Below, one piece after another: positions 9,227 to 30,441 of a DNA stretch of 51,043 bases (position 1 is the first letter of the stretch; the number at the start of each line of letters is the position of its first letter). The position numbers were made by a program, and so were the translations under genes. The notes under the pieces were generated by a model. That model was not told the DNA's origin. It ran no database searches and saw only the letters and a program-made list of their open reading frames with translations. This DNA comes from an uncultured Candidatus Saccharibacteria bacterium. Lineage in GTDB: Bacteria > Patescibacteriota > Minisyncoccia > Minisyncoccales > MHMH01. The DNA is taken from positions 1-51,043 of the forward strand of contig CAYYJV010000001.1 of the NCBI GenBank assembly GCA_964472225.1, written 5' to 3'.

Positions 9227-11710
9227 TTAAACTACGAAATTAATGAGTTTTCCTGGCACAAATATCACCTTCTTGAGTGGTTTGTTGGCTATCCATTTTT
9301 TAACCTTTTCTCGCCCCAATGTCAATTCCTCTGCCTGCTTTTGAGAAATATCAACAAATACCTCAATTTTATCTCTAACCCTGCCGTTAACCTGAATAAT
9401 CAATTGGGTTTTTTCTTCTTTTACCAATTTCGGATTATATCGAGGCCATTGCTGATTATGAATGCTTTCTCGTTCTCCCATGTTATGCCACAATTCCTCG
9501 CTTATGTGAGGGGCAAACGGCGCCAAGAGTTTAATTATCAATTTCCAATTTTCACCGTGTGGATCGGTGGAACTTTTCAATGATTGAGGTTGTTTGGATG
9601 CTTCATTTATTAATATCATCAGGGCGGAAATGGCTGTGTTAAACCTCATGCCCTCAATATCTTCTGTCACCTTTTTAATAGTTTTATGCAATAGCCTTTC
9701 TATTTTTTCATTTTTAATTTCGCTTTTTGATTTTTTATTTTTAATTTTTAATTTTCCAAATAGATCCCATACTCTATTAAGGAATCTATAAATTCCCACG
9801 ATCCCATTTGGGTTCCATGCCCCTCCTTGGTTGTATGGCCCCATAAAACAAAGGTACATCCTTACGGCGTCAGCGCCATACTTTTTCACCTGCTCATCGG
9901 GATCTATCACATTGCCCCTGGATTTTGACATTTTTTGGCCATCGGGACCCAAAATAATTCCCTGGTGTCGCAAGGCCAAAAACGGCTCTTTGAAACCCAA
10001 ATGGCCAAGCTTATTTAAAACCTTAGTAAAAAACCGGGAATACAAAAGATGCAAGACGGTGTGCTCGGCTCCTCCAACGTACATTCGCACTGGCAGCCAT
10101 TTTTCAATTTTGTTTTTGGCAGCGAATTTTTTATCGTTATGGGGATCGGCGTAACGAAGATAATACCAAGAAGAACAAACAAAGGTATCCATGGTATCTG
10201 TTTCCCTTTGGGCAGAACCCTTACACTTGGGACAAGTGGTTTCAACAAAACTTTTGGATTTGGCCAGAGGAGAATTCCCTTCGCCCGTAGGCTTGTAATC
10301 TTTGATTTTCGGCAGCAAAACCGGCAAATCTTTTTCCGGAACCCGCTGCCAACCGCATTTTTCACAAAAAACCATGGGGATGGGAGCCCCCCAATATCTC
10401 TGTCGTGAGATCAGCCAATCACGTAATCTATAATAAACTCTTTTCTTGGCTAACCCCTTTTTAGCTAGCCACTCCCCGATTCTTTCTCTGGCATCAACAG
10501 AAGGCATACCCGTAAACCGACCGGAATTAACCAACACCCCCTCTCCCTCATAAGCCCTATTAACGAAGTCATTCTTCGTTAATGGTTTGATAACGTCAAT
10601 AATTGGTAAATTGTATTTCTTGGCGAAATCAAAATCTCTTTGGTCGTGAGCGGGGACTGCCATAATGGCTCCTGTGCCGTAATACATTAAAACATAATCT
10701 GCCACGAAAATAGGGATTTCCCGGCCGTTCACCGGATTGACGGCTTTAACGCCCCTTAATTCTATCCCGGTTTTCTCTTTTATTTCGGAAATCCTCTCCT
10801 TTTCCGTTTTTTTCTTGGATGACGTGACATATTCCTGAACAAATTTTAAATTTTGGATTTTGAGCTTTGGGTTTTTCAAAATCGGATGTTCCGGAGCTAC
10901 CACTAAATAAGTACAACCGAACAAGGTATCCGCTCTCGTAGTGAAAACGGGGATTTTAAATTTTGCCGTGCGCTGTGCGGAAACGGCGGGTGAACAACGG
11001 GCGTTTTGAATTTTGAATTCTATTTGCCATCCTTCTGACCTTCCAATCCAGTTCCTCTGCATAATCTTCGTGGTTTCGGGCCAATCCAGGCCCTCCAAAT
11101 CTTTCAATAAATCCTCGGCAAAGTCAGAAATTTTAAAAAGCCACTGCTCGATTTCCTCTTGCACCACCTCCGAATCGCACCTTTCGCACAAACCATCAAT
11201 CACTTGTTCGTTGGCTAAAACCGTCTTACAGGAAGGACAAAAATTACAGGGCACCTTGGCTCGGTAGGCCAAACCCGCCTTGTGCAGCTGTAAAAACATC
11301 CACTGGGTCCATTTATAATATTCGGGCTCAGAAGTAACAATCTCCCTGGACCAGTCATAACAATTCCCAAGTGACTTCAATTGCTTTCTCATTCTCTCAA
11401 TGTTCTTTTTGGTCCAGTTTTTGGGATGAATCCCCCTCTTTAAAGCAGCATTTTCTGCCGGTAATCCAAAAGAATCAAAGCCAATCGGCGACATTACATT
11501 AAACCCCTGCATTCTTTTGAAGCGAGCGTAAACGTCAGCGGGGGCGAAATTATACCAATGTCCTATATGAAGGTCGCCCGAAGGATAAGGAAACATCACC
11601 AGATGGTAAAAATTCTCCCTGCCTTTGGTCTTATCGGGAGTTTTGTAAATTCCAGAATTCTCCCAAATTTTCTGCCATTTTTTTTCAATTCTTTGTGGAT
11701 TATACTTCAT
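9227..11710 (-). CDS. leuS: Leucyl-tRNA synthetase
   Basis: 827 aa. It has the HIGH-type motif (SGDLHIGH), the KMSKS motif, the CP1 editing-domain blocks (TTRADTLFGCTY, GTGAIMAVPAHDQRD) and the C-terminal anticodon-binding domain. Confidence 0.95.
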   Translation of the reverse strand: MKYNPQRIEKKWQKIWENSGIYKTPDKTKGRENFYHLVMFPYPSGDLHIGHWYNFAPADVYARFKRMQGFNVMSPIGFDSFGLPAENAALKRGIHPKNWTKKNIERMRKQLKSLGNCYDWSREIVTSEPEYYKWTQWMFLQLHKAGLAYRAKVPCNFCPSCKTVLANEQVIDGLCERCDSEVVQEEIEQWLFKISDFAEDLLKDLEGLDWPETTKIMQRNWIGRSEGWQIEFKIQNARCSPAVSAQRTAKFKIPVFTTRADTLFGCTYLVVAPEHPILKNPKLKIQNLKFVQEYVTSSKKKTEKERISEIKEKTGIELRGVKAVNPVNGREIPIFVADYVLMYYGTGAIMAVPAHDQRDFDFAKKYNLPIIDVIKPLTKNDFVNRAYEGEGVLVNSGRFTGMPSVDARERIGEWLAKKGLAKKRVYYRLRDWLISRQRYWGAPIPMVFCEKCGWQRVPEKDLPVLLPKIKDYKPTGEGNSPLAKSKSFVETTCPKCKGSAQRETDTMDTFVCSSWYYLRYADPHNDKKFAAKNKIEKWLPVRMYVGGAEHTVLHLLYSRFFTKVLNKLGHLGFKEPFLALRHQGIILGPDGQKMSKSRGNVIDPDEQVKKYGADAVRMYLCFMGPYNQGGAWNPNGIVGIYRFLNRVWDLFGKLKIKNKKSKSEIKNEKIERLLHKTIKKVTEDIEGMRFNTAISALMILINEASKQPQSLKSSTDPHGENWKLIIKLLAPFAPHISEELWHNMGERESIHNQQWPRYNPKLVKEEKTQLIIQVNGRVRDKIEVFVDISQKQAEELTLGREKVKKWIANKPLKKVIFVPGKLINFVV
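9702..9756. repeat. Degenerate heptanucleotide AT-rich array inside leuS
   Basis: The coding strand reads GAAAATT AAAAATT AAAAATA AAAAATC AAAAAGC GAAATTA AAAATGA. It is translated in frame as KLKIKNKKSKSEIKNEK. Confidence 0.55.
10952..11020 (-). repeat. In-frame insertion in leuS: a GC-rich core (10965-11003) flanked on both sides by heptamer modules
   Basis: The coding strand reads GAATTCAAAATTCAAAAC-GCCCGTTGTTCACCCGCCGTTTCCGCACAGCGCACGGC-AAAATTTAAAATC, which encodes EFKIQNARCSPAVSAQRTAKFKI. The core is roughly 80% identical, by my hand alignment, to intergenic 22741-22782. Confidence 0.7.
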
Positions 11711-14535: not shown

Positions 14536-15303
14536 CTAAATTTTAAATAACTCTTTAGCATTTCGGGTGGTAATTTGAGCTATTTCTTTATAATCTAAAT
14601 CTTTAATTTTAGCAATTTTCTCTGCCACATATTTTACATAAGCTGGCTCATTCCGACCCTTTTGGGAAGGCGGAGTCAAATAGGGGCAATCGGTTTCAAT
14701 TAAAATTCTCTCTAGAGGGGTTTTTTTAATGACATCGTCCAAATCCATTTTAAATATTATCCCGTTAAACCCCAAATAAAGCCCTTTTTCTATATATTTC
14801 TCTGCCTGATTCCGATCGCCGGTGAAACAATGAATAACACCTCTTAATTTCGAATTTCGTGCTTTGAATTTCAAATTTACGATCTCTATGAGATCCTCGT
14901 GGGCCTTTCGACAATGAAATATGATCGGCAGGTTTAATTCTTTGGCCAAATTCATTTGTTCTATCAAAATTTTCTTTTGCCTTTCTTTAAATGAAATGTA
15001 CTCTTCTTTGTAGTCCAGGCCGATTTCCCCAATGGCTACCACCCTTCGACTATCGCTTAGGGCAAGCTTTTTATATTCGTCGTAATTAAAATCATCTTGA
15101 GCATGAATCGGATGCAGGCCGATGGCTGCATAAACTCCTTTTGGATATTCTTCAGCTATTCTTACCGCTCTTTTGCTGGTAGTTAATTGTGAGCCGACAT
15201 TTATCATCCAAATATCACCGTCTAAAGAACGCCGAATAACTCTGTCGGCGTCTTCTTTGTAGGCCGAGAAATTCAAATGGGCGTGAGTATCGATTAACAT
15301 CAA
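14536..15303 (-). CDS. tatD: TatD-family metal-dependent hydrolase
   Basis: 255 aa. IDTHAHL, EIGLDY, IFHCR and ETDCPYL are the TatD motifs. Confidence 0.9.
   Translation of the reverse strand: MMLIDTHAHLNFSAYKEDADRVIRRSLDGDIWMINVGSQLTTSKRAVRIAEEYPKGVYAAIGLHPIHAQDDFNYDEYKKLALSDSRRVVAIGEIGLDYKEEYISFKERQKKILIEQMNLAKELNLPIIFHCRKAHEDLIEIVNLKFKARNSKLRGVIHCFTGDRNQAEKYIEKGLYLGFNGIIFKMDLDDVIKKTPLERILIETDCPYLTPPSQKGRNEPAYVKYVAEKIAKIKDLDYKEIAQITTRNAKELFKI
14845..14879. repeat. Heptamer-type AT-rich module inside tatD
   Basis: The coding strand reads AAATTTGAAATTCAAAGCACGAAATTCGAAATT, which encodes NLKFKARNSKL. A short GCAC island sits between the heptamer units. Confidence 0.5.
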
Positions 15304-16718
15304 AGACGCGGAAATAATGGTTTGCTCTTTTTTGTTTTAATTTGTTCTAATATTTTTTCCGAAGTTCCGGGCAAAAACGGTTTTAACATTTCAGCAATAT
15401 GATTCAGGGCGAACAATAAATCACCAATAACCCTCTTGTCCTTGCTCTCCCACGGTCTTTTTTTCTCAATGTATTTGTCGCAAAAACCAATTAGCTCCCA
15501 AATCGTAGCCAGCGCTTCATTAAATCGAAGCTCACTTAGAGAACGATGGTATTCTTTCCAAGTTTTGTTTATTTCCGCTTTGAATTTGGCTGTGTGGGAA
15601 CAGTGGGTTTTTGAAAATTTATTGGAAATTAAAAATTGGAAATTAGAAATTTGCGCCATTTTTATTACTCTGGCAACCAAATTCCCGAGCCCTTTTGCCA
15701 AATCAGAATTATAGCGCCCCTCAAATTTTTCGCGCGTAAAGTCTCCGTCTTCCGTCGGCGGAATCTCCCGCAGAAGAAAATATCTCACCGGATCTGTCCC
15801 GTATTTCTCAACCAATTCAAAAGGATCAATAACATTCCCCAAGCTTTTTGACATTTTTTGACCGTTAACGGTTATGAATCCGTGAACAAATATAATTTTA
15901 GGTAAAGGCAATCCGAGAGATAAAAGCATGCCCGGCCAAATCAAGCAGTGAAACTTCTGAATGTCTTTACCTATACACTGAACATCTGCTGGCCAGCGCC
16001 CCGGAGCTCCGGAAAGATAATTGGTTAAAGCATCTGCCCAACAATAGATAGTATGCGCGTCGTCGTCGGGAACGGGAATCCCCCATTTTAAATCTTTCCG
16101 AGGTCTGGAAAAACTGATGTCTTCCAAACCATGCTTTACAAAGCTAAGCATTTCATTCTTGCGGCTTTCGGGGACGATTTTTATCTTATCCCTTTTAATA
16201 ATTCCTTCTATTTTGGAAGAATATTTAGAAAGACGAAAAAAATAATTTTCTTCTTCAACTAATTCTGGTTCTTCTTGGTGAATTCCGCATCGGCCGTTTT
16301 TCAAATCCTTTTTGGTAATAAACGCCTCGCAGCCGACACAATAGAGCCCTTTGTACTTTTTCTTGTAAATATCGCCGTTTTTCTTTAATGCCAGCCAAAC
16401 CTTTTCTACCGAAGGCCAATGTTTTTTTCGATCGCTTGTACGGATGAAATTATCGTTGGAAATGTTCAAAATTTTAGTCAGCTTTTTGAATTTTTTCGCG
16501 AGCAAATCAGTAAATTCTTTCGGACTTTTGCCCGCCGCTGCGGCGGCTTCTGCCACCTTTTTTCCATGCTCGTCCGTGCCCGTTAAAAAGAAAACATCCT
16601 CGCCCAAAAGCCGGTGATATCTGGCTATCACATCTGCTTGAATTACTTCTAAGGCGTACCCGATGTGCGGAGAAGCGTTAGTATAAGCTATGCTAGTGGT
16701 AACATAGAACTTCTTCAT
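15300..16718 (-). CDS. metG: Methionyl-tRNA synthetase (short form, no C-terminal tRNA-binding appendix)
   Basis: 472 aa. It has the HIGH-type motif (ASPHIGY), KMSKS, and a CxxC knuckle (CVGCEAF). Confidence 0.95.
   Translation of the reverse strand: MKKFYVTTSIAYTNASPHIGYALEVIQADVIARYHRLLGEDVFFLTGTDEHGKKVAEAAAAAGKSPKEFTDLLAKKFKKLTKILNISNDNFIRTSDRKKHWPSVEKVWLALKKNGDIYKKKYKGLYCVGCEAFITKKDLKNGRCGIHQEEPELVEEENYFFRLSKYSSKIEGIIKRDKIKIVPESRKNEMLSFVKHGLEDISFSRPRKDLKWGIPVPDDDAHTIYCWADALTNYLSGAPGRWPADVQCIGKDIQKFHCLIWPGMLLSLGLPLPKIIFVHGFITVNGQKMSKSLGNVIDPFELVEKYGTDPVRYFLLREIPPTEDGDFTREKFEGRYNSDLAKGLGNLVARVIKMAQISNFQFLISNKFSKTHCSHTAKFKAEINKTWKEYHRSLSELRFNEALATIWELIGFCDKYIEKKRPWESKDKRVIGDLLFALNHIAEMLKPFLPGTSEKILEQIKTKKSKPLFPRL
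15578..15652 (-). repeat. In-frame insertion in metG: a truncated GC core (15588-15608) plus a heptamer array (15609-15652)
   Basis: The coding strand reads ...CAAATTTCTAATTTCCAATTTTTAATTTCCAATAAATTTTCAAAAA-CCCACTGTTCCCACACAGCC-AAATTCAAAG, which encodes ISNFQFLISNKFSKTHCSHTAKFK. The core matches 22754-22774 at 20 of 21 positions by hand alignment. Confidence 0.65.
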
Positions 16719-18441: not shown

Positions 18442-19703
18442 AATTTTAACAATTTCTTAAATTTATTCTCACCTTTAAAGGGCCCCACCATAGCCAAATT
18501 CAAATTTTTGGGCTGAAAAATATCCTTGGCAACCATTTGAATGTTATCGGCTGAAACTTTATCAATTTTAGCATAAACTTCTTTCAAGGTTAAGATCTCC
18601 TTTTTCAAAAGATCCTGCGTGGCGTAAAAGGAGGCTAGGGCATCAGAGGACTCCAGCATCAAGGCCATTTTCCCTTTGATGTAGTCTTTGACCTTCTTTA
18701 ACTCCGCTAATGGAACCTTCTTTTTGGAAATTTTCTTGTATTCTTTTAAAATCACCGAAATAGCTTTTTCGACGTTTCTATTGTCTACCCCGGCTTGAGT
18801 CATCAATGAACCCGTATCCGGGTTAGAATCAATATTGGTCTTAATGTAATAGGCTATGCCAAGCTTTTCCCGCACTTCTATAAAAAGGCGCGAACTCATC
18901 ATTCCTCCCAAAATTATTCCCAATATATCCTGAGTGTATTTTTGGGGATGAAAAAGATTGTATCCCCGCACTCCCAGACAAAGATGGGTTTGATCGGTTT
19001 TCTTGGGATACAAAAGCAGCTGAGGAGAGCTTTGTTTCTCAACAACCTTTTGCTTTTCTTTTGGAGGGGTACTTCCTATACCAGAAAAATATTTCTTTAT
19101 TTTTTCCACGGCAGGCGAATTGTCTATTTTCCCTGCCACGCAGACAATGGTATTGGCGGCCACATACTGTCTTTTCATATAGTTGAAAAGATCTTTGCGA
19201 CTGATTCCCATTACGCTTTCTTTGGTTCCCGCGATATCCCAGCCGGCTGGCTGATCTCCGTATAAAAGCTGGTTCCATAAAAGCCCGACGTGCAGCATGG
19301 GATTGTCATACTGCATGTTTATTTCTTCAATGATCACCCCTTTTTCTCTTTTGGTTTCTTTTTCCGGAAGAAGACTATTTAAAAAAATGTCCGAGACCCA
19401 ATCCAAAGCCAAATCAAACTTATCTGCAGCCACCTTGGCAAAATACCCGGTATAATCCTCTCCCGTGAAAGCGTTGTAAATGCCTCCGATCTTGTCCAGG
19501 GTTTCGGCAATTTCCAGTTTGTCTGGGCGCTTTTTCGTTCCCTTGAACAACATGTGCTCCAAAAAATGGGAAATACCAGAAGTCTTTTTGGTTTCATATT
19601 TGGAACCCGTTCCCACCAATACTAAAACCGTTACCGCCTGCGTCCCTTTTTGAGGAACGGTAATAATCCTCAACCCATTCTTAAGAGTCGTCTTTTTATA
19701 CAT
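18438..19703 (-). CDS. M16-family zinc peptidase (pitrilysin-like)
   Basis: 421 aa. It has the inverted zincin motif HFLEHMLFKGT. Confidence 0.85.
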   Translation of the reverse strand: MYKKTTLKNGLRIITVPQKGTQAVTVLVLVGTGSKYETKKTSGISHFLEHMLFKGTKKRPDKLEIAETLDKIGGIYNAFTGEDYTGYFAKVAADKFDLALDWVSDIFLNSLLPEKETKREKGVIIEEINMQYDNPMLHVGLLWNQLLYGDQPAGWDIAGTKESVMGISRKDLFNYMKRQYVAANTIVCVAGKIDNSPAVEKIKKYFSGIGSTPPKEKQKVVEKQSSPQLLLYPKKTDQTHLCLGVRGYNLFHPQKYTQDILGIILGGMMSSRLFIEVREKLGIAYYIKTNIDSNPDTGSLMTQAGVDNRNVEKAISVILKEYKKISKKKVPLAELKKVKDYIKGKMALMLESSDALASFYATQDLLKKEILTLKEVYAKIDKVSADNIQMVAKDIFQPKNLNLAMVGPFKGENKFKKLLKL

Positions 19704-21018
19704 CTAATTTCTTTTTAAGAATTTTAGTTAGTTCTTTAATCTTTACTCTTTTTTGCTTCATGGTGTCGCGGTCGCGCAAGGTGACATCTTTTTTCTTTAA
19801 AGTGTCGAAATCTACGGTAATGGCAAAGAGAGTACCAATCTCATCCTGCCGGCGATAGCGGCGACCGATAGAGCCCACCTCGTCGTACTGGACCGCAAAA
19901 TGCGGCTTCAATGTTTTATAAACCTCCTTGGCCATCCTAACCAATTCTGGCTTGTTTTTCACCAAGGGAAGAACGGCCGCTTTAACGGGAGCTAATTTCT
20001 TGTGGAACCTTAACATCACCTCAATCTCTTTAACAGATTCTGTGGTTTTGGTTCTTCCCCCCTTAATTTCTTGATAGGCATCGATTAAAAATGCCAAAAA
20101 GCTCCTGTCGGCCCCGCCGGAAGTTTCAATAATGTAAGGATAGTACCCTTCGTATTTAAGGTCTTGACCGGAATATTTGGAATGGTTTGATAAGTCCCAA
20201 TCTCCCCTATTGTGAATTCCCTCAATTTCTTTCCAGCCGAAAGGAAATTTGTACTCGATATCCACGGCCCTTTTAGCGTAATGGGCCAATTCTTTTTTGG
20301 GGACCTCCCTCGCCCTTAAATTTTCTTTTTTAATTCCCAAATTCAAATACCATTTCATCCTTTCTTTCTTCCAGTATTCAAAAAATTTGGGGGCTGACTT
20401 TGGCTGGCAAAACCACTGCATTTCCATTTGTTCAAATTCGCGGGTCCGGTAAATGAAATTGCCGGGAGTAATCTCGTTACGGAAAGCCTTGCCGATTTGC
20501 GCCACGCCGAAAGGCAACTTCAACCTCATTGAATTAATAATATTATTAAAGTTCACATATATCCCCTGACAGGTCTCAGCCCTCAAGTAGGTAGTAGAAG
20601 CTTTATTTTCTACCGGCCCCACAAATGTTTTCATCATTAGATTAAATTTACGAGGCTCTGTAACCTCCCCCCCGCACTCGGGACAGCGTATAGGGGTTCG
20701 ACCTCTGTGCGTTTCGTCTGGGCGAAAGCGTTTATGGCATTTCTTGCATTCCACCAGTTCATCGGCAAAGCCGGCCGCCAAGTGCCCCGAGGCTTGCCAG
20801 ATTTTGGGTGACATCAAAATGGCCGAGTCCAAACCGACAACGTCATCGTGTCTCATCGTCATTTCCTGCCACCAAGCTTTTTTGATGTTATTTTTCAATT
20901 CCACGCCCAAGGGACCAAAATCATAACCCGAGCCAAAGCCCCCGTATATTTCAGATGACGGGTAAACGAAGCCTCGACGCTTACACAAAGATATGATTTT
21001 CTGCATTAAATCTTCCAT
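19696..21018 (-). CDS. glyQS: Glycyl-tRNA synthetase (class II, alpha2 type)
   Basis: 440 aa. RRGFVYPSSEIYGG, FNLMMKT, the class II motifs and a Cys-rich knuckle (CKKC...CPEC) are present. Confidence 0.95.
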   Translation of the reverse strand: MEDLMQKIISLCKRRGFVYPSSEIYGGFGSGYDFGPLGVELKNNIKKAWWQEMTMRHDDVVGLDSAILMSPKIWQASGHLAAGFADELVECKKCHKRFRPDETHRGRTPIRCPECGGEVTEPRKFNLMMKTFVGPVENKASTTYLRAETCQGIYVNFNNIINSMRLKLPFGVAQIGKAFRNEITPGNFIYRTREFEQMEMQWFCQPKSAPKFFEYWKKERMKWYLNLGIKKENLRAREVPKKELAHYAKRAVDIEYKFPFGWKEIEGIHNRGDWDLSNHSKYSGQDLKYEGYYPYIIETSGGADRSFLAFLIDAYQEIKGGRTKTTESVKEIEVMLRFHKKLAPVKAAVLPLVKNKPELVRMAKEVYKTLKPHFAVQYDEVGSIGRRYRRQDEIGTLFAITVDFDTLKKKDVTLRDRDTMKQKRVKIKELTKILKKKLDV

Positions 21019-22720: not shown

Positions 22721-22868
22721 GGTCTCCCCCGTTTAGGAAGGCCCGCTGTTCACCCACTGTTCGCACACAGCACACGGCAGCGAAGTGTTATCCGCCACGG
22801 GCGGATTCCCTTGGGGATTCCGGGCAACTCCCGAGAGATTTCTAAAAGAAGGGGGTCGGGGGAAATCC
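22721..22868 (+). repeat. Copy B of the inverted-repeat-bounded GC-rich element, carrying nested modules including the leuS/metG-homologous core (22741-22782)
   Basis: It runs from GGTCTCCCCCG to GGGGGTCGGGGGAAATCC, and the termini pair. Internally it carries the hairpin ATCCGCC-ACG-GGCGGAT and the module TCCGGGCAACTCCCGAGA. The 3' arm (22845-22868) lies inside the recO coding region. Confidence 0.6.
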
Positions 22869-23498
22869 TCTAATTACATCTTTATTATACCATTCAGAAG
22901 CATCTTTTAATAATTCTAAATGAATGGGTTCGAATTTTAATCTCGACAGGGTCTGCCAGTCCTTTTTCAAGATTAACTTTAAAATCTTGGCCAAATCATT
23001 ATCGATTTTCTTGCCGCAAAGGGAATCTCTCTGAAGTTCCGGCGAATACCCAAGAATGGAAGCCAAGCTCCAGAAAAAATAGTAATAAATAATTTTTAAT
23101 TTTAAATTTTTAATTTCATAATCATTTAATTTGTGGAAAACATCCTTGATCAGCTGCCAAATCTGTTCGTCTTTTTCTTCTTGAGGGGTTAAATTATCCA
23201 GAGTTTCGGCGATTTGATAAGCTACTTCTAATCTTTCTAAATCACTTCTTATGTTCTTAAAACTATTAACCAAAATCGCATCCGTCAAAGTTTTATGAGT
23301 TTTTCCCTGGATGAATTCAATCTCTGAAAGATAAAAAAGGCCGGCCCCTCCTCTCAATTTTGACTTGATTTTCCTAATGGCCCTGCCCAGAATCTCCAGT
23401 TTGCCGAAATTCTCGGTGTAAATCGTCAAAAGCCGGTTTGCCTCTCCCAAATCCTTCTTTTTCAAGATTAATCCTTGAGTTCTGTAATGGATAGCCAT
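22842..23498 (-). CDS. recO: DNA repair protein RecO
   Basis: 218 aa. The N-terminal OB-fold block GLILKKKDLGEANRLLTIYTENFGKLEILGRAIRK is typical of RecO. The last residues, GFPPTPFF, are encoded by the repeat arm. Confidence 0.85.
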   Translation of the reverse strand: MAIHYRTQGLILKKKDLGEANRLLTIYTENFGKLEILGRAIRKIKSKLRGGAGLFYLSEIEFIQGKTHKTLTDAILVNSFKNIRSDLERLEVAYQIAETLDNLTPQEEKDEQIWQLIKDVFHKLNDYEIKNLKLKIIYYYFFWSLASILGYSPELQRDSLCGKKIDNDLAKILKLILKKDWQTLSRLKFEPIHLELLKDASEWYNKDVIRGFPPTPFF

Positions 23499-26400
23499 AA
23501 GTTCTGCTGGTCAACTTTTATTTCCCCTTCCACTAGAAAAACTTTCTTCAATTTTCTTTTCAAAACGAAATCTTCGGCCCGGGTTTCTGTTAAAATGTTT
23601 CTTTTGTGCCTTTCCAACACCTTGTTCAATTCCGGGTCGCCGAAATATTGAACCAGAATTTTATCCTTAGGCTTCAAACCGGCTTTTTTCCGTAACGCCT
23701 GGATCTGACGAATAACCTCCCGAACTTGGCCTTCTTCCTTTAAGGCGGGAGTAATTTTGGTGTCTAATTTAAATGTTTTACCCAAAGTAATTTTCTTAAC
23801 GTTGACCTCCTCTTTAATTAATTCTGCTAATTCCTTATCTATCTTTTCTTTAATCCGCAATTCGGCCAACGGCTGGCGTACCTTGATTCCGGCTTTTGAT
23901 CTTTCTGCCAGGGCTAAAGCCACTATTTCTCTCACTTTTTCCATTTTCTGATTCAATCTCTTATCAATCAATCTTTTGTTGGTTTTCGGCCAATTCTCCA
24001 AATGCACACTCCGCGAAGAACGGTTCTCCGTCACACTGCGATAGATTTCTTCGCTAAGAAATGGAATAAAAGGGGCGGCTAATTTAGACAAAGTTTGCAA
24101 AACCAAAGCCAGGGTGCCGGCAGCTTTTGAAAAGCGCTTGCGCGACCTGCGAATATACCAAAGGGAAAGGTCATTAATAACAAAATTTTCGATCGCCCGG
24201 GCGGCTCCTGTTACGTCGTATTTATCAAGCTTGTCGGTCGTTTCTTGAATAAGCTCATGTAGCCTCGAAATAATCCATCTATTTAAAATATGATTGCAAT
24301 ACCTTTTTCCCGATTGGTAAAAATGTGTTACATAGGTTTGGTAAAATTGATAAGAGTTCCAGAAGGTCAAAATAAATTTTTTCAGGGCTTGCTCCACATC
24401 TTTCTCAGAGAAAAGCTTGACATCGCCCGGCTGATTGACCGTGTAGAAATACCAACGGGCGGCGTCGGTTCCGTACTTTTCAATAATATACCAAGGGTCT
24501 ACTACGTTACCCTTGGACTTCGACATTTTTTCTCCTTTTTCATCCAGAACATGACCCAGAGAAATCACATTCTTATAAGGAGGGCCAAAACCCAAAAGAG
24601 TGGAGATAGCCAAAAGAGTATAAAACCAACCTCGAGTTTGATCCACTGCCTCGGAAATATAATCAGCCGGAAACAATTCCGGAGGAATTAATTTTTGATT
24701 TTTGATTTTTGATTTTTGATTTTGAGCGAAGGGCCAATGGCCCTGAGCGAATGGCATGGCTCCGGAATCAAACCAAACGTCGATTAATTCCGGCGTTCTT
24801 TCCATTATATTTTGGCATTTGGGGCAATGAAATTTCACTTCATCAATGTAAGGGCGGTGAAAATCTATTTGTCCCTCTTCGTTTAAAGGAACATTTTTAT
24901 ACTCAATCTTGCGCCACTCTCCTGTTTTGATGTCAGTATTTTTAATGTTCATATTCAGTAGTTCTTGATCGCTCAGCATTTTCACGGCTCCCTCCAGCAG
25001 CCAAAGCGGATCACCGTGGCTGACAATTAAAATGGTTTTATTCTGATGTTTTTTGTCAATTTCGGCAAGCCACCTGACCATTCTCCTCCGACACTCTCCC
25101 CAATTTTCTCCGCCGGCAGAATTTTTACTATAAAATCTTTCCAGGTTTTGGGGGAAAGCCCGGTAAAATTCTTCCTTTTTCTTCCCGTGATAAATCCCCA
25201 AATTGACATCTCGTAATCTTTTATCAAAGATTATTGGCGCCCCTAAATATTTAGCGACGATTTCCGCTGTCTGACGAGTTCTGGCCATATCCGAGGAATA
25301 AATTAAATCTATCCCTTTGCCCTTAAGCTCTCTGGCAGCTTTTTTTATTTGATTCTGGCCGACTTTGGTTAACGGAACGGGTTTACTTTCGGGGAAAGGA
25401 TAAACCCATTCCCTTTTCTTTGTCTGATAAACTGTCTGGCCGTGGCGCAGGATATAATATTTATTAGTGGAAAACTTTTGCTTGATGATATCTTTTTTAG
25501 AGCCGATGATTTCTTGGTGTCCGCATTTCTGGCACTGCCAAATGGGCAAAGGAGTTCCCCAATATCTTTCCCTGGAAAGAGCCCAATCTTTAAGTTCTTT
25601 CAGCCATTCACCAAACCTACCCTCTTTTAAGTGGGGAGGCACCCAATTGATCTTTTGATTGTTTTTGATCAGCTGGCTTTTGGCTTTTTGCATATTAATA
25701 AACCAACTTTCTTTGGCATAATAAAGTAAGGGGGAGGTGCATCTCCAGCAAAAGGGATAATCGTGCTCATATAATTCTTCCTTGAATAAAAGGCCCCTCT
25801 TTTTAAGATTGTCGATAATCAAGGGGTCGGCATCTTTTACCCAGAGGCCTCGCCAGTTTTTTACTTCTTTTTTGAATTTCCCCTCTTCGTTTACATTCAA
25901 TATAACAGGCAGGTTGTTTTTCTTTCCCGCCTCCATGTCTTCCTCACCAAAAGCCGGAGCTATGTGCACCAAGCCCGTTCCTTCTTCTAGGGAAACAAAA
26001 TCCCCAGCAATGACCAGAGCGTAGGGGGGGCCGACCTCTACACGATATGGGGGTTCATATTGTAAGCCCAACAAATCTTTTCCTTTAATTTCCTTCATTA
26101 TCTCGCCCTCAATCCCCAAAGATTCCATCCTCTCTTTGGCCAGAATCAAATATTCTTCTCCGACTTTCATTTTAACGTAAGTAAAATTGGGGTTGACTGC
26201 CACAGCCACGTTCCCCGGCAAAGTCCAGGGAGTGGTCGTCCAAACCAGCAAATAAGAATTTTTGAAATTTGGATTTTGGATTTTGAACTTCACAGAGATA
26301 GCGGGTTCTTTGATTCTTTTATAGCCGAGGGCGACTTCGTGAGATGAAAGACTGGTGCCACATCGAGGACAATAAGGCACCACTTTGTAATCTTTGTACA

Positions 26401-26896
26401 AAAGGCCTTTTTCGTAAATTTGCTTGATGATCCAAAAAAGACTTTCCATGTAATTCGGATCATAGGTAATGTAGGGATTTTCCATGTCCAGCCAAAAACC
26501 AATTCTTTCTGTCAGCTTTTCCCAATCTTGTTTGTAAGTCCAGACTGATTGCTTACATTTTTGGTTAAATTTAGCAATACCATATTTTTCAATGTCTTTT
26601 TTAGATTTTAGACCCAGTTTCTTTTCAATTTCTAACTCCACTGGCAATCCATGGGTATCCCAGCCGGCTTTCCTTAAAACCCGAAAACCCCGCATGGTTT
26701 TGTACCTACAGATTATGTCCTTATAAACCCGACTTAAAACATGGTGAATTCCGGGCTTAGCATTAGCTGTAGGCGGTCCCTCGTAAAACACAAAGTCACG
26801 AGCTTTCGCTCGCTGCTTAATGCTTTTCTCAAAAATCTTTTTTTCCTTCCAAAACTTTAAAATCTCCTGCTCTTTTTTTGAAAAATTGAGCTCCAT
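23468..26896 (-). CDS. ileS: Isoleucyl-tRNA synthetase (type 2-like) carrying an internal histidine-phosphatase domain
   Basis: 1142 aa, uninterrupted. It has the PPTANAKPGIHH (HIGH region) block, the CP1 editing blocks (WTTTPWTLPGN, GTGLVHIAPAFGEED), KMSKS and the anticodon-binding domain. Residues ~478-672 form a His_Phos_1-like domain (see findings). Confidence 0.95.
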   Translation of the reverse strand: MELNFSKKEQEILKFWKEKKIFEKSIKQRAKARDFVFYEGPPTANAKPGIHHVLSRVYKDIICRYKTMRGFRVLRKAGWDTHGLPVELEIEKKLGLKSKKDIEKYGIAKFNQKCKQSVWTYKQDWEKLTERIGFWLDMENPYITYDPNYMESLFWIIKQIYEKGLLYKDYKVVPYCPRCGTSLSSHEVALGYKRIKEPAISVKFKIQNPNFKNSYLLVWTTTPWTLPGNVAVAVNPNFTYVKMKVGEEYLILAKERMESLGIEGEIMKEIKGKDLLGLQYEPPYRVEVGPPYALVIAGDFVSLEEGTGLVHIAPAFGEEDMEAGKKNNLPVILNVNEEGKFKKEVKNWRGLWVKDADPLIIDNLKKRGLLFKEELYEHDYPFCWRCTSPLLYYAKESWFINMQKAKSQLIKNNQKINWVPPHLKEGRFGEWLKELKDWALSRERYWGTPLPIWQCQKCGHQEIIGSKKDIIKQKFSTNKYYILRHGQTVYQTKKREWVYPFPESKPVPLTKVGQNQIKKAARELKGKGIDLIYSSDMARTRQTAEIVAKYLGAPIIFDKRLRDVNLGIYHGKKKEEFYRAFPQNLERFYSKNSAGGENWGECRRRMVRWLAEIDKKHQNKTILIVSHGDPLWLLEGAVKMLSDQELLNMNIKNTDIKTGEWRKIEYKNVPLNEEGQIDFHRPYIDEVKFHCPKCQNIMERTPELIDVWFDSGAMPFAQGHWPFAQNQKSKIKNQKLIPPELFPADYISEAVDQTRGWFYTLLAISTLLGFGPPYKNVISLGHVLDEKGEKMSKSKGNVVDPWYIIEKYGTDAARWYFYTVNQPGDVKLFSEKDVEQALKKFILTFWNSYQFYQTYVTHFYQSGKRYCNHILNRWIISRLHELIQETTDKLDKYDVTGAARAIENFVINDLSLWYIRRSRKRFSKAAGTLALVLQTLSKLAAPFIPFLSEEIYRSVTENRSSRSVHLENWPKTNKRLIDKRLNQKMEKVREIVALALAERSKAGIKVRQPLAELRIKEKIDKELAELIKEEVNVKKITLGKTFKLDTKITPALKEEGQVREVIRQIQALRKKAGLKPKDKILVQYFGDPELNKVLERHKRNILTETRAEDFVLKRKLKKVFLVEGEIKVDQQNLWLSITELKD
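24691..24724. repeat. Heptanucleotide array inside ileS (4 perfect ATTTTTG units plus one 6-nt unit)
   Basis: The plus strand reads ATTTTTG x4 then ATTTTG. The coding strand translates it as QNQKSKIKNQK, just downstream of the WFDSGAMPF block. Confidence 0.75.
26257..26289. repeat. Heptamer-type array inside ileS
   Basis: The coding strand reads TTCAAAATCCAAAATCCAAATTTCAAAAATTC, which encodes KFKIQNPNFKNS. It lies immediately before the conserved LLVWTTTPWTLP block. Confidence 0.6.
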
Positions 26897-27098: not shown

Positions 27099-27674
27099 TT
27101 ATATTAACTTGAAGATTTTCTTCAAAAATTTATCGTTTTCAATATTTTCTGCAGTAATTAAACGAATTTCTTTTTGACTCAAACCAAAAAATTCACGTAA
27201 AAGTTCTATTTCGTCCTTGCAGGGATAAGGATGAATCCAAACGCTCTTTTGAAGAGGAAAAAATCCCAACTCCTTTAATTTCCCCCTGAAAGCATTGCGC
27301 TGTAAATTTTTGAGCTGGGCAATATCGAAAATAACTATTCTCCATTTTCTGTCCCACTTTTTGGGTTTATTTATCTCCAAACTATCTATCTGAAATCTAC
27401 CGGCTTTCTTTCTCCCCTCTTTGGTTAAGGAAATATAAATCTGGTGATTTCTGCTTTTAATGTCAATATATCCACGGCGTTTGAGATTGTAAAAAGCATC
27501 ATAAACGTTTTTTTGTTTGTATTTTTTTTTATTTTTAAAACTCCTAATAAGATTGATGCCAAAATAAGGAGAGGTAGCGGCAATACAAATCGCCCCGCTT
27601 ATGGCTAGCCATTTTAAAATGTCTTTTGTTATTTCTGATCTTGGTTTTGCAAAATAATATTTATATTTACTCAT
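27099..27674 (-). CDS. Putative regulator: winged-helix segment plus a Cas2-like/PaaX_C-like ferredoxin-fold domain
   Basis: 191 aa. YDAFYNLKRRGYIDIKSRNHQIYISLTKEGRKKA looks like a wHTH. WRIVIFDIAQLKNLQRNAFRGKLKELGFFPLQKSVWIHPY follows the Cas2/PaaX C-terminal pattern (xYDI...R..f...L...Gf..lQ.SV). A hydrophobic N-terminal segment is present. Confidence 0.5.
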   Translation of the reverse strand: MSKYKYYFAKPRSEITKDILKWLAISGAICIAATSPYFGINLIRSFKNKKKYKQKNVYDAFYNLKRRGYIDIKSRNHQIYISLTKEGRKKAGRFQIDSLEINKPKKWDRKWRIVIFDIAQLKNLQRNAFRGKLKELGFFPLQKSVWIHPYPCKDEIELLREFFGLSQKEIRLITAENIENDKFLKKIFKLI

Positions 27675-28039: not shown

Positions 28040-29623
28040 CTACATTTTCTGCGGGGCGGAAATGCCCATTAAAAAGAGGGTGTTTTTGAGAACGATTTGA
28101 GTGGCCAAAACTAAAGCTAGGCGGGCTTGGGTCAGTTTTTTATCTTCAGAAATTACTCGGCAGTCTCTGTAAAATTGGTGAAAGGCGGTAGCCAGAGTTA
28201 AGGCATAATGAGGAAGGCGCTGTAATTGATAATCTATGGCCGTATCTTCCACAATTTCCGGAAATCTAATTAATTGCTTAATCAATGCCAATTCGCGCGG
28301 ATGGGACAACAAATTGACAGGTGTATATTTTTTGTCCTGTTGGATTTTTTTAAATTTTCTAAAAATACTGACGATTCTGGCGTGAGCGTATTGAACGTAA
28401 TACACCGGATTTTTCGCGGACTGCTCCTTGGCTAAAGATAAATCAATTTCCATATGGGTATCCAGAGACTTTTCCAAATAAAACCATCTGGCCGCATCGA
28501 GGCCAATTTCATCCACCAAATCTTCCAAGGTTATAATCTCTCCTTTTCTCTTGGAAATCTTCTCTTTCCCTTTTAAAGTCACCAGCTGCAAAATTAAAAT
28601 ATCGAATTTTCCGCCATAGCCCAGCATCTTAACTGCCGCTCTCATCTTGGAAACATGGGCTTGGTGGTCTGCTCCCCAGATATTGATAACTCCGTTGAAT
28701 CCCCTGTCGAACTTGTCTTTGTGGTAAGCAATGTCAGAAAGGAAATAAGTTGGCTCTCCTGATTTTCGAACAACTACCCAGTCGCGCTCTTCTCCAAATT
28801 GAGAAGTTTTCAGCCACCACGCCTTATCTTTTTCGTAAATCAAACCTCTTTTTCTCAGCCAGTCTAAAATTTTTCTAATCTTACTCTTTTTGTAAAGGTC
28901 TTTTTCCTCGGAAACCCATTTATCAAATTTAATTTTTAATTTTTTCTCAAGAAAATTCTTGATATCTTTCTGAATTTGCTGTGCCAAAAAATATCCTGCT
29001 TCATTTTCCTTATCAAATTTCTTTAACCTTTTCTTCAGGGTTTCCAGCTTTTCTTTCAAATAAGGGGTTAAATAAGAGCTCCCTCTTCCCAAGGCGGTTT
29101 TGCCTAATTCCTTAATCTGACCACTATTTTTGGCGTCATTTACAAAATATTCCCTGGTTACTCTGTAACCTACTTTTTGTAAAACATTGGAAATAACATC
29201 TCCGGCAAAGGCATTCCGGCCATTACCAATATGAAGGGGGCCCGTCGGATTGGCAGAAATTGACTCAACGCTTATTTTTCCTTTTTTCTTCAATCGGCCG
29301 AATTTGTCTTTTTCTTTTACTATTTTTTTAACCTGCTTTTGTAAATAATCCTTGGAAAGAAAAAAATTAATGAAGCCGGGTTCTGCTACTTCAACTTTCT
29401 CAAAAATACCTGATTGAAGGTTTAAAATGTGAAATCTCAATGTCTCAGCTATTTGCTTTGGAGACATTTTAAAAGTTTTGGCCAACTGCAAAGCGACGTT
29501 GGTGGCATAATCACCATGATTTTCATCCTCGGGATGCTCGACTCCGATCTCTGCCGATAACCTAAAACCTGCCTCTTTCATGGCTTTTCTAATCAAATTT
29601 ATTAGGTCTTCGCGAATCATCAC
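28040..29623 (-). CDS. argS: Arginyl-tRNA synthetase
   Basis: 527 aa. SANPTGPLHIGNGRN (HIGH region), GADHQ and the C-terminal DALR-type anticodon-binding domain ending in GISAPQKM are present. Confidence 0.95.
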   Translation of the reverse strand: MMIREDLINLIRKAMKEAGFRLSAEIGVEHPEDENHGDYATNVALQLAKTFKMSPKQIAETLRFHILNLQSGIFEKVEVAEPGFINFFLSKDYLQKQVKKIVKEKDKFGRLKKKGKISVESISANPTGPLHIGNGRNAFAGDVISNVLQKVGYRVTREYFVNDAKNSGQIKELGKTALGRGSSYLTPYLKEKLETLKKRLKKFDKENEAGYFLAQQIQKDIKNFLEKKLKIKFDKWVSEEKDLYKKSKIRKILDWLRKRGLIYEKDKAWWLKTSQFGEERDWVVVRKSGEPTYFLSDIAYHKDKFDRGFNGVINIWGADHQAHVSKMRAAVKMLGYGGKFDILILQLVTLKGKEKISKRKGEIITLEDLVDEIGLDAARWFYLEKSLDTHMEIDLSLAKEQSAKNPVYYVQYAHARIVSIFRKFKKIQQDKKYTPVNLLSHPRELALIKQLIRFPEIVEDTAIDYQLQRLPHYALTLATAFHQFYRDCRVISEDKKLTQARLALVLATQIVLKNTLFLMGISAPQKM

Positions 29624-29661: not shown

Positions 29662-30111
29662 ATGAGGGTTTTGGCGGAAAACAAAAAGGCATACTTCAAC
29701 TATGAAATCCTGGAGAAATTCGAAGCCGGCTTGGTTTTACAAGGCCATGAAGTAAAATCTATACAATCAGGAAGAATAACCTTGGCCGGCTCCTATGTTG
29801 TTTTAAAAAACAAAGGGGCGTATCTGCTCAATGCCACAATTCCTCCCTACCAACCTAAGAACGTTCCGACAGACTACAATCCTACCAGGCTGAGAAATCT
29901 CCTTTTGAAAAAATCGGAAATCAAGTATTTAATCGGAAAGTCGCGGCAGAAGGGCTTGACTTTGGTGCCTTTAAGGGTGTATACTAAGAAAGGTAAAATT
30001 AAGTTAGAATTCGCCTTGGCCAAAGGAAGAAAAAAAGCCAGCAAAAAAGAGTTATTAAAAAAACGGGCGATAGACAGAGAAATTAAGCGGGAGTTAAAAT
30101 CCAGAGGATAA
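29662..30111 (+). CDS. smpB: SsrA-binding protein
   Basis: 149 aa. NKKAYFNYEI, GHEVKSI, the TRLRNLLLKKSEI block and LALAKGRKK are present. It is immediately followed by the tmRNA. Confidence 0.95.
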   Translation: MRVLAENKKAYFNYEILEKFEAGLVLQGHEVKSIQSGRITLAGSYVVLKNKGAYLLNATIPPYQPKNVPTDYNPTRLRNLLLKKSEIKYLIGKSRQKGLTLVPLRVYTKKGKIKLEFALAKGRKKASKKELLKKRAIDREIKRELKSRG

Positions 30112-30437
30112 GGGGGTGACAGGATTCGACAGTTATTCTTTGCCAAAATCTGCAAGCAAAAGCTCTTCGAACAATAAGTGCCAACTTGTTCAAACAACCT
30201 GCTTACGCTTTGGCGTAACGCCATCTGAATAGTTGATTCTCGATAGACTATCTCAGGTGTTATATAAATCGAGATATCCGGTTTCTTTGCCTCGAAGATT
30301 CCGGGAATCAAAGAGGCTAGAAATGCTGAAATTTTGTCTATTTTATATTCAGTATTTCGAACGGCGAAATAGACTAAGCTTGTAGAGTGATTTTGGTAAA
30401 ATTTCTGGATCCGAGTTCAATTCTCGGCACCTCCACC
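30112..30437 (+). ncRNA. ssrA: tmRNA (ssrA), one-piece; predicted tag (A)NLFKQPAYALA
   Basis: The 5' end GGGGGTGACAGGATTCGACAG and the 3' end GGATCCGAGTTCAATTCTCGGCACCTCCACC form an acceptor stem with a G3-U pair and a T-arm (CCGAG-TTCAATT-CTCGG). The resume codon GCC is at 30180, the ORF GCC AAC TTG TTC AAA CAA CCT GCT TAC GCT TTG GCG runs to 30215, and the TAA stop is at 30216-30218. Confidence 0.9.
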
Positions 30438-30441
30438 TACT

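Follow-up and report, generated by a model that had tools for sequence, protein, structure and literature searches.

Aminoacyl-tRNA synthetases (aaRS) are among the most conserved enzymes known. To our knowledge, new catalytic domains inside the sequence of their catalytic domain are very rare in bacteria. The present work concerns such a domain in isoleucyl-tRNA synthetase (IleRS). The ileS gene in question lies in a stretch of 51,043 nucleotides from a metagenome assembly (contig CAYYJV010000001.1, positions 1 to 51,043), which was analysed as a whole and is further called the window. Its product contains a histidine phosphatase domain nested between two parts of the synthetase sequence, and several described proteins share one or another aspect of this arrangement.

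A class of IleRS with an extra enzymatic domain has already been curated (NF040702, ileS_w_GNAT). The extra domain is GNAT and not histidine phosphatase, and the window protein does not reach the cutoff of this model (321.6 vs 1999 bits). In the NF005567 family (Rv2228c type), a branch-1 histidine phosphatase is joined to a nucleic-acid enzyme, as in the window protein, but the fusion is end to end instead of nested and the partner enzyme is unrelated. The synthetase part itself is homologous over its full length to type-2 IleRS (1ILE; 8C8U/8C8W; E=2.8e-268 and 1e-253; Foldseek E=5e-80), with which it has in common the domain order, editing motifs, KMSKS, zinc-knuckle cysteines and C-terminal domain. 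No domain is present at the corresponding site in solved IleRS structures (bacterial type 1 and type 2, yeast, Candida, H. pylori). Fold and catalytic residues of the nested domain are those of PhoE/YhfR from G. stearothermophilus (1EBB, 1H2E), PspA from Hydrogenobacter (4IJ5), the glucosyl-3-phosphoglycerate phosphatase Rv2419c (4PZ9) and CobC (6E4B). Its size is similar to theirs and the C-terminal tail of dPGM is absent. These enzymes are all stand-alone, however, and only 19-28% identical to the insert.

Closer relatives of the insert are free-standing phosphatases of Paceibacteria (P0006, P0010 and P0046), themselves uncharacterised and labelled in their sources "broad specificity phosphatase PhoE" or "histidine phosphatase family protein". 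They possess the same catalytic set and are encoded in the same operon, upstream of ileS. They differ in being separate polypeptides and in keeping residues of the cap region and of the HGDPLWLLEG segment that are relaxed in many nested copies.

Because a GNAT-bearing IleRS class and a fusion of histidine phosphatase with a nucleic-acid enzyme are already known, the window protein does not open a new category. It is a real, widespread and undescribed variant of IleRS, the sequences of which are themselves already public. We found no description of a phosphatase-bearing IleRS in the full-text literature searched, nor, by term search, any mention in the IleRS papers PMC10485003 and PMC11685878 and in a 2026 preprint on IleRS domain evolution. 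This agrees with the original prediction, made from the window sequence, which knew of no described IleRS of this kind. At the level of the proteins themselves a correction is due: the insertion is not unique and occurs lineage-wide in many Paceibacteria/Nealsonbacteria.

The synthetase and its nested domain

The ileS gene is a single open frame of 1142 codons plus stop, without interruption, as had been stated; it runs on the minus strand, which the original prediction had not specified. The flanking blocks and the insert sequence quoted at that time are present as written, and the proposed residues 478-672 correspond exactly to positions 24881-25465. Conservation is given below for a close set of 119 full-length homologues and a distant set of 81 deeply divergent representatives; pLDDT is the predicted local distance difference test of the full-length model. 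The features, in the order of the protein, are as follows.

23468..26896, minus strand: ileS, type-2 IleRS with nested phosphatase (TIGR00392; best solved relatives 1ILE and 8C8U)
25487..26896, minus strand: N-terminal part of IleRS, residues 1-470, with first Rossmann half, editing region (connective peptide 1, CP1) and first zinc-knuckle half; aligns to 1ILE 7-476
26741..26752, minus strand: GIHH, residues 49-52, GXHH form of the class I HIGH signature
25523..25534, minus strand: first CxxC of the zinc knuckle (C455, C458), invariant in the 119 nested homologues
25466..25522, minus strand: N-side loop arm and linker, residues 459-477, with junction motif IGSxxDLLxQKFSxN in all nested homologues; pLDDT 91-95
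24881..25465, minus strand: insert, residues 478-672; Pfam envelope 481-663 (24908-25456)
25439..25447, minus strand: R484-H485-G486 (RHG) with H485 as predicted phospho-accepting nucleophile; R and H in 119/119 close, 80/81 distant
25280..25282, minus strand: R539, predicted second phosphate-binding arginine; 119/119 close, 80/81 distant
25106..25108, minus strand: E597, predicted general acid; 119/119 close, 81/81 distant
25013..25021, minus strand: S626-H627-G628 with the second catalytic histidine; H in 119/119 close, 81/81 distant
24869..24904, minus strand: C-side linker EYKNVPLNEEGQ, residues 665-676; pLDDT about 89-94
24815..24826, minus strand: second CxxC of the zinc knuckle (C691, C694), invariant in the 119 homologues
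23471..24868, minus strand: C-terminal part of IleRS, residues 677-1142, with HRPYID, WFDSG (708-712), KMSKS, anticodon-binding domain and type-2 C-terminal domain (DUF5915)

The Pfam domains of the protein follow in the order tRNA-synt_1, His_Phos_1, tRNA-synt_1, Anticodon_1 (PF08264, E=7.9e-33) and DUF5915. The nesting of His_Phos_1 (PF00300) between two stretches of tRNA-synt_1 was therefore found where the original prediction had expected it. The match covers residues 481-663 with E=3.2e-40 (138.3 bits vs 21.7; positions 2-183 of the 194 of the profile), and it persists when the 195 aa are excised and searched alone (E=1.1e-41). Similarly, the NCBIfam ileS model TIGR00392 recognizes the whole protein (910.8 bits vs cutoff 621.4) in two stretches, one on either side of the insert.

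All motifs claimed for the insert (RHG, R, E and SHG) are present. All 119 close homologues retain the five catalytic residues R484, H485, R539, E597 and H627 together, as do 79 of the 81 distant ones; of the remaining two, one is a truncated alignment envelope. G628 is variable among nested forms (G in 53, E in 50, Q in 12). Within the 119 homologues the mean pairwise identity of the insert is 0.51, compared to 0.73-0.75 for the IleRS core and 0.55 for the C-terminal domain. The fixation of just the catalytic residues within a faster-evolving insert points to retained catalysis.

The original prediction asked whether the insert would fold as a separate lobe, and the models favor this. An AlphaFold2 model of the insert alone, built with 112 sequences, reached pLDDT 94.5 and a predicted template modelling score (pTM) of 0.91. 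Foldseek comparison of this model gave 309 PDB matches at E<=0.001, and the top 50 listed all belong to the histidine phosphatase family. The closest folds are PspA (4IJ5/4IJ6, with 4IJ5 as the top neighbour), Rv2419c (4PZ9), PhoE (1H2E), a histidine phosphatase of the riboflavin pathway (9MMH) and CobC (6E4B), with TM scores of 0.74-0.79 and 19-28% identity. In sequence comparison, PhoE and PspA are the best solved relatives (E ~5e-15). Taken by profile score, catalytic set and modelled fold, the insert qualifies as a histidine phosphatase of branch 1.

Its place within the branch is another matter. The insert stays far below the cutoffs for dPGM (TIGR01258, 37.5 vs 81.7 bits; dPGM_arch, 87.3 vs 225), CobC (TIGR03162, 88 vs 162.9), PspA (NF045917, 72.6 vs 350) and SixA (TIGR00249, 29.2 vs 74.5). 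The best NCBIfam match is NF005567, bifunctional RNase H/acid phosphatase, with 93 bits vs a cutoff of 326. Motifs of dPGM are RHGESxWN and HGN; those of the insert read RHGQTVYQ and SHGDP. Judged by these sequence models, the insert is a member of no characterised phosphatase subfamily. We also tried to assign a substrate through the equivalog models or the structural neighbours and had to abandon the attempt: all models are below cutoff and the neighbours are diverse small-molecule phosphatases.

The full-length model (pLDDT 81, pTM 0.71) matches the IleRS2 structure 8C8U (E=5e-80), and Foldseek ranks the IleRS types as sequence does, IleRS2 ahead of IleRS1. Assignment to type 2 further relies on DUF5915 at the C-terminus and on scores of 848-896 bits for 1ILE/8C8U vs 330-339 bits for IleRS1 (8C9F, 1FFY). 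KMSKS is canonical (residues 790-794, window 24515-24529, minus strand) and the editing motif WTTTPWTLPGN (residues 219-229) is intact; both are invariant among the 119 homologues. Sequence comparison also aligns the editing region with 1WK8 and 1UE0, which are structures of the editing domain on its own.

The HIGH signature has the non-canonical form GIHH. According to Brkic et al. (PMC10485003), GXHH is a functional variant of IleRS2 that gives mupirocin hyper-resistance. The GXHH of the window protein matches this hyper-resistant class, and we read GIHH as a known functional variant and not as a defect. Because G49, H51 and H52 are close to invariant among the 119 nested homologues, the whole nested clade is probably of GXHH type. 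The plasmid-type mupirocin-resistance models were not reached (MupA NF000257, 832.8 bits; MupB NF000258, 821.4 bits; cutoff 1900). In terms of sequence, the scaffold is thus to be classified as type 2 IleRS of the GXHH class, with all defining features tested present, and its function would seem to be unimpaired.

Position of the insert is defined by alignment with solved structures. In T. thermophilus IleRS, 1ILE 7-476 corresponds to residues 2-470 and 1ILE 488-821 to residues 677-1004 of the window protein; in P. megaterium IleRS2 the break at 476/484 lies opposite 472/675. About 206 residues therefore stand in place of the 8-11 found in solved IleRS structures, and the characterised enzymes, for which the original prediction had required the absence of this segment, indeed lack it. 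Expressed as the span from WGTP to WFDSG, the insert-less IleRS with short loop of T. thermophilus type have 64-73 aa and the nested ones 260-273 aa.

The insert separates the two halves of a zinc knuckle, C455xxC458 and C691xxC694, shortly ahead of HRPYID and WFDSG, and all four cysteines are invariant in the 119 homologues. The connective peptides of IleRS are named CP core, CP1 (editing), CP2 and CP3 in PMC11685878. The insert is located in the connective-peptide region, at the tip of the zinc-knuckle surface loop and away from the active site; the peptide concerned may be CP3. The original claim that it lies inside the catalytic core is consequently correct for the primary sequence only.

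Two linkers connect the insert with the knuckle, and each has a motif common to all nested forms: QKFSxNxY in the N-side linker and, preceding FHRPY, xFKxLPYNxxGE(L)D in the C-side one. The part of the insert that is homologous to free-standing proteins stops at GEWRKI (residues 659-664), and the C-side linker which follows is found in neither free-standing phosphatases nor insert-less IleRS loops. Residues 451-700, comprising the knuckle, both linkers and the insert, have pLDDT 82-97 in the full-length model. Since the linkers are modelled with high confidence, the model suggests that the phosphatase lobe is rigidly held on IleRS. Low-confidence stretches are confined to residues 44-51 around GIHH, 717-737 and the KMSKS loop 780-799, that is, to the usual mobile elements.

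An ORF of 133 aa runs antisense within ileS (24290-24691, plus strand) and is most likely spurious.

Recurrence and origin of the nested architecture

When the full protein was searched, all 120 of the best hits listed were found to have PF00300 together with IleRS domains (62-81% identity, 1103-1659 aa). These hits are clusters at 90% identity, at least 120 of which are thus nested. Their source assemblies are those of NCBI, JGI, ENA and Logan, with contigs of up to 750 kb, and where names are given they are Candidatus Nealsonbacteria, Patescibacteria group or Pacebacteria. Further out, the insert is present in 86 of the 150 best IleRS representatives at 50% identity, the 86 being 36-52% identical to the query. 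In GTDB, 406 species genomes encode a relative of the insert. Locus counts given here cover the best 80 loci among them: 34 are nested, 33 have a separate phosphatase gene directly upstream of ileS (adjacent type), and 13 have no ileS in the flank, some of these because the contig ends within it.

The original prediction proposed a search for homologues with the same insertion point. The junction is identical in all nested homologues, and a junction-spanning search returned IleRS fragments with both of the same junctions, plus more than 1100 free-standing phosphatases (clusters at 90% identity). The nested architecture is thus a trait that extends across the lineage in many Paceibacteria/Nealsonbacteria. 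The view of the segment as a functional domain insertion, as opposed to an artefact or pseudogene, is well borne out by this recurrence at one junction (at least 120 clusters, 86/150 representatives, 34 GTDB species) with a near-invariant catalytic set. The genome that hosts the window gene belongs to the Paceibacteria/Nealsonbacteria group of Patescibacteria (candidate phyla radiation, CPR). Public names of the nested proteins are only "isoleucine--tRNA ligase" or "class I tRNA ligase family protein", and annotation is a problem in its own right here, as such generic names hide the phosphatase domain.

Some labels of the records deserve a comment. Many GTDB locus records (L007, L009, L010 and others; binchicken co-assemblies) bear the title "uncultured Candidatus Saccharibacteria bacterium". 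In IleRS and synteny they agree with records of Nealsonbacteria/Paceibacteria, and the titles look generic or incorrect. One nested locus (L082) resides in a bin titled Acutalibacteraceae and is probably a binning contaminant.

Where could the insert come from? Free-standing proteins of about 190 aa align with it end to end, from MKLxNKYF..RHG to GELRKL, at 55-62% identity. Two of their genes precede an insert-less ileS (946 and 976 aa) by 20 bp and 2 bp, and the neighbourhood of both is that of the window: SmpB, ArgRS, IleRS, RecO and DUF7619. The estimated gap between the phosphatase gene and ileS is -39 to +42 bp in 29 of the 33 GTDB loci of adjacent type. In many nested loci, argS lies 4-20 bp from ileS, so the slot of the phosphatase is empty, and the 51-kb window holds no second phosphatase copy. 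The two gene orders, argS/phos/ileS-N/ileS-C (adjacent) and argS/ileS-N/phos/ileS-C (nested), consist of the same parts. Because the upstream slot is empty in nested genomes, we interpret the insert, by sequence and gene order, as the relocated upstream neighbour gene, a correspondence that could not be seen when the original prediction was made. We have hardly any doubt about the architecture together with this origin. In the window, the block is delimited by the following genes.

28040..29623, minus strand: argS (ArgRS), upstream member of the block argS-[phos]-ileS-recO
22842..23498, minus strand: recO, downstream member of the block; 31-nt overlap with the 3' end of ileS (23468-23498)

Tight or overlapping gene junctions are typical throughout the argS-ileS-recO block in these genomes.

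An insertion of mobile-element or intein-like kind was considered and rejected: there are no direct or inverted repeats of note in the flanks of the insert, and the insert is an ordinary enzyme of metabolic type. One nested homologue (P0188, 1659 aa) does contain a true intein (PF14890), which is situated at another site. It accounts for an extra ~565 aa near the position of window-protein residue 179, at CPRC of the first zinc knuckle. The P0188 protein is N-terminally truncated by about 67 aa.

The number of transitions between the two states was estimated on neighbor-joining (NJ) trees without outgroup, built from 928 columns of the IleRS core in 53 taxa. The basal clade is entirely of adjacent type; mixed clades follow, and adjacent subclades occur within the main nested clade. 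Fitch parsimony requires a minimum of 4 nested/adjacent changes on the point tree and 3-6 in 200/200 bootstrap replicates, compared to ~18 with shuffled labels. A single origin of nesting with clean monophyly was thus discarded. Identities tell a similar story: some adjacent-type IleRS are 63-67% identical to that of the window and some nested ones only about 50%. As reconstructed from these sequences, the state would have changed at least 3 times.

On the other hand, the linker motifs are common to all nested forms, which argues that the nested junction itself arose once. Both findings would be reconciled if the insert had spread by homologous recombination within the highly conserved IleRS sequence on either side of it, and if the upstream gene, by then redundant, had afterwards been lost. 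Since the basal clade is of adjacent type and the insert-less loops look ancestral, the adjacent state probably came first and the nested one would be derived, as far as NJ trees without outgroups can indicate direction.

Possible roles of the phosphatase lobe

In the simplest reading, the protein is a bifunctional package, made of a working IleRS and an active phosphomonoesterase lobe which acts on the substrate of its free partner, with stoichiometric co-production as the effect of nesting. We put the probability of this reading at about 0.7. A coding segment of the upstream phosphatase would have moved ~1.4 kb downstream into ileS and left its old slot empty. The IleRS scaffold, with GXHH, KMSKS, editing motifs and anticodon domains kept, would charge and proofread tRNA-Ile as usual. 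The insert would fold as a separate lobe with complete active site on two short conserved linkers. From what is known of the family, H485 is expected to accept the phosphate, R484, R539 and H627 to bind it and E597 to serve as general acid, the outcome being hydrolysis of a phosphomonoester. The substrate would most likely be that of the free-standing operon partner, a small phosphorylated metabolite or nucleotide. Nesting would then chiefly fix 1:1 co-production and proximity, and add no new chemistry.

The individual parts of this proposal do not stand equally firm. That the nested lobe is an active phosphatase is, in view of its conserved residues, very probable. That it works independently of aminoacylation we favor only slightly over the opposite.

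Several observations weigh against the bifunctional package. Firstly, the insert falls below every NCBIfam equivalog cutoff (dPGM, CobC, PspA, GpmB, SixA). Secondly, residues which are near-fixed in free copies are relaxed in many nested ones (D563, Y569, Y578, F581, K590, W599, G628, D629 and W632). They are located in the cap region and after the second catalytic histidine, and their relaxation may reflect a specificity shifted after nesting, or else the loss of a surface for interaction. There is a bias in this comparison, since the free set consists of the best hits to the insert of the window, and this insert is itself of "free-like" type at the relaxed positions. Thirdly, rigid-looking linkers and the persistence of nesting over a large radiation would fit a role tied to IleRS as well.

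Such a role could be that of a third active site, coupled to the synthetase in cis. It might remove 3'- or 2'-phosphates from damaged or phosphate-capped ends of tRNA-Ile, or act on a phospho-nucleotide of the charging cycle; a tRNA-end or nucleotide substrate had been offered in the original prediction as speculation. In relatives of adjacent type, this task would fall to the free phosphatase, acting in trans and perhaps docking onto IleRS. We regard this alternative as unlikely, even if much speaks for some connection between the two enzymes. The phosphatase is linked to ileS in 67 of the 80 GTDB loci, through two architectures, and in the adjacent one the few bp between stop and start codons suggest that translation is coupled. 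Nesting with intact active site is maintained over dozens of clusters at 50% identity. Both linkers are conserved and have pLDDT ~89-95, suggesting a fixed geometry. The remodelling of cap-region residues in many nested forms is again compatible with a changed specificity, and the top NCBIfam match is the phosphatase half of an RNase H/acid phosphatase, albeit far below cutoff.

Linkage, however, turned out to be less specific than it appears. If genes within 1.5 kb are counted, ArgRS is encoded upstream in 23/28 adjacent and 20/26 nested loci, and RecO downstream in 23/27 adjacent and 24/30 nested loci. The entire argS-phos-ileS-recO-DUF7619 block is thus conserved about as strongly as the phos-ileS pair. 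In two loci (L038 and L072), SmpB, ArgRS, phosphatase, RecO and DUF7619 are all in place and ileS is missing from the block; in these genomes it must lie elsewhere. Because the block is as conserved as the pair and the phosphatase is kept where ileS is absent, their adjacency can be explained as inherited operon order. For the same reasons we rejected adjacency as specific ("Rosetta stone") evidence of cooperation between phosphatase and IleRS.

Other loci also speak against a coupled site. A paralogous subfamily (L042, L046, L047, L048, L054 and L057), with N-terminus MKLxLKNKYFLLRHGKTIHQ and 45-47% identity to the insert, is unlinked to ileS and lies beside unrelated genes, namely those of an NTP-transferase and/or a PD-(D/E)XK nuclease. 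One locus (L014) has, besides its nested copy, a free one about 0.9 kb downstream of ileS (7986-8576, plus strand; 43% identical to the insert of the window), and is the only one among the 80 loci with two phosphatase copies in the flank. The close structural neighbours of the insert all act on small molecules, and there are no tRNA-repair genes near the locus. We know of no RNA-end phosphatase in the histidine phosphatase superfamily, which counts against a coupled site as well.

A more general link of the phosphatase with aaRS was sought in a 689-aa fusion of ArgRS and phosphatase (L061; CAYPCL010000014.1, 2981-5047, plus strand; DALR 390-503, His_Phos_1 509-672), directly followed by recO and with no ileS in the block. 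A search with the ArgRS-phosphatase junction found no second example, nor the L061 protein itself, among the 120 matches listed. Recurrent fusion was therefore dismissed: the protein is a singleton that may owe its existence to a lost stop codon or a sequencing error.

If the lobe were not catalytic at all, it could be a co-opted structural or tRNA-binding element. In favor of this, non-catalytic domains are often found appended to aaRS, the insert changes faster than the IleRS core, and many nested copies have lost residues fixed in the free ones. A purely structural role would nevertheless need none of the five catalytic residues. Their retention in all 119 close homologues and in 79 of the 81 distant ones makes such a role very improbable.

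Equally little can be said for a built-in protein phosphatase that would clear an inhibitory phosphate from IleRS or a neighbouring translation factor, like a tethered antidote to a HipA-type kinase. Tethering would suit an intramolecular substrate, protein phosphatases such as SixA, PGAM5 and Sts-1 exist in the superfamily, and bacterial toxin kinases of HipA type target the aaRS GltX, TrpS and LysS. Against this, the SixA model gives 29 bits where 74.5 are required, structural neighbours of the insert are metabolite phosphatases, and the conserved block has no kinase gene; we give the idea hardly any credence.

Finally, the window does come from a metagenome assembly, but an artefact, be it a chimeric contig, a pseudogene or two genes wrongly called as one, has a negligible chance and can be set aside: the same junctions recur in hundreds of independent assemblies from several sources, among them contigs of 0.5-0.75 Mb, the frame is open throughout, base composition is even across the insert without any break, and both IleRS halves are needed for function in a 51-kb window that has no second ileS.

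Whichever role applies, a complete second enzyme with intact active site is accommodated in the zinc knuckle of an essential synthetase and maintained across a large radiation of ultra-small, host-dependent bacteria. It offers a clean natural example of domain insertion, in which donor gene, ancestral slot and acceptor loop are recognizable and both architectures coexist in related genomes. Thanks to the several switches of state, mechanism and fitness consequences of the insertion are directly testable. If the phosphatase acts on tRNA or the aminoacylation cycle, a new activity would be added to the repertoire of synthetases, and a function would be assigned to a large family of phosphatases in CPR bacteria that so far lacks annotation (more than 1100 clusters at 90% identity; 406 GTDB species). 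The coupled site, if true, would represent synthetase-embedded quality control or repair of a new kind, and the free phosphatases would become trans-acting partners of IleRS.

Neighbouring genes in the window

The gap between argS and ileS is not devoid of genes in the window. It holds an ORF of 191 aa (27099-27674, minus strand) with a match to PaaX_M (Cas2-like; E=3.8e-19), plus an ORF of 59 aa. The PaaX-like ORF is found where adjacent-type relatives have the phosphatase gene, and its tblastn matches are also upstream of ileS in three other loci (L022, L064 and L086).

The window is rich in aaRS genes. Besides ileS, they occupy 9227-11710, 15300-16718, 19696-21018 and 28040-29623, all on the minus strand. 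The set comprises argS, a class II gene (tRNA-synt_2b and HGTP_anticodon, 440 aa), a class I gene for a MetRS-like protein of 472 aa, and a class Ia gene for a protein of 827 aa which distantly resembles IleRS (22-24% identity).

On the other side of argS lies the smpB ORF (29662-30111, plus strand). The gene for transfer-messenger RNA (tmRNA) starts from the very next base (30112-30438, plus strand); it scores 126.7 bits with the Rfam model and its tag peptide is ANLFKQPAYALA.

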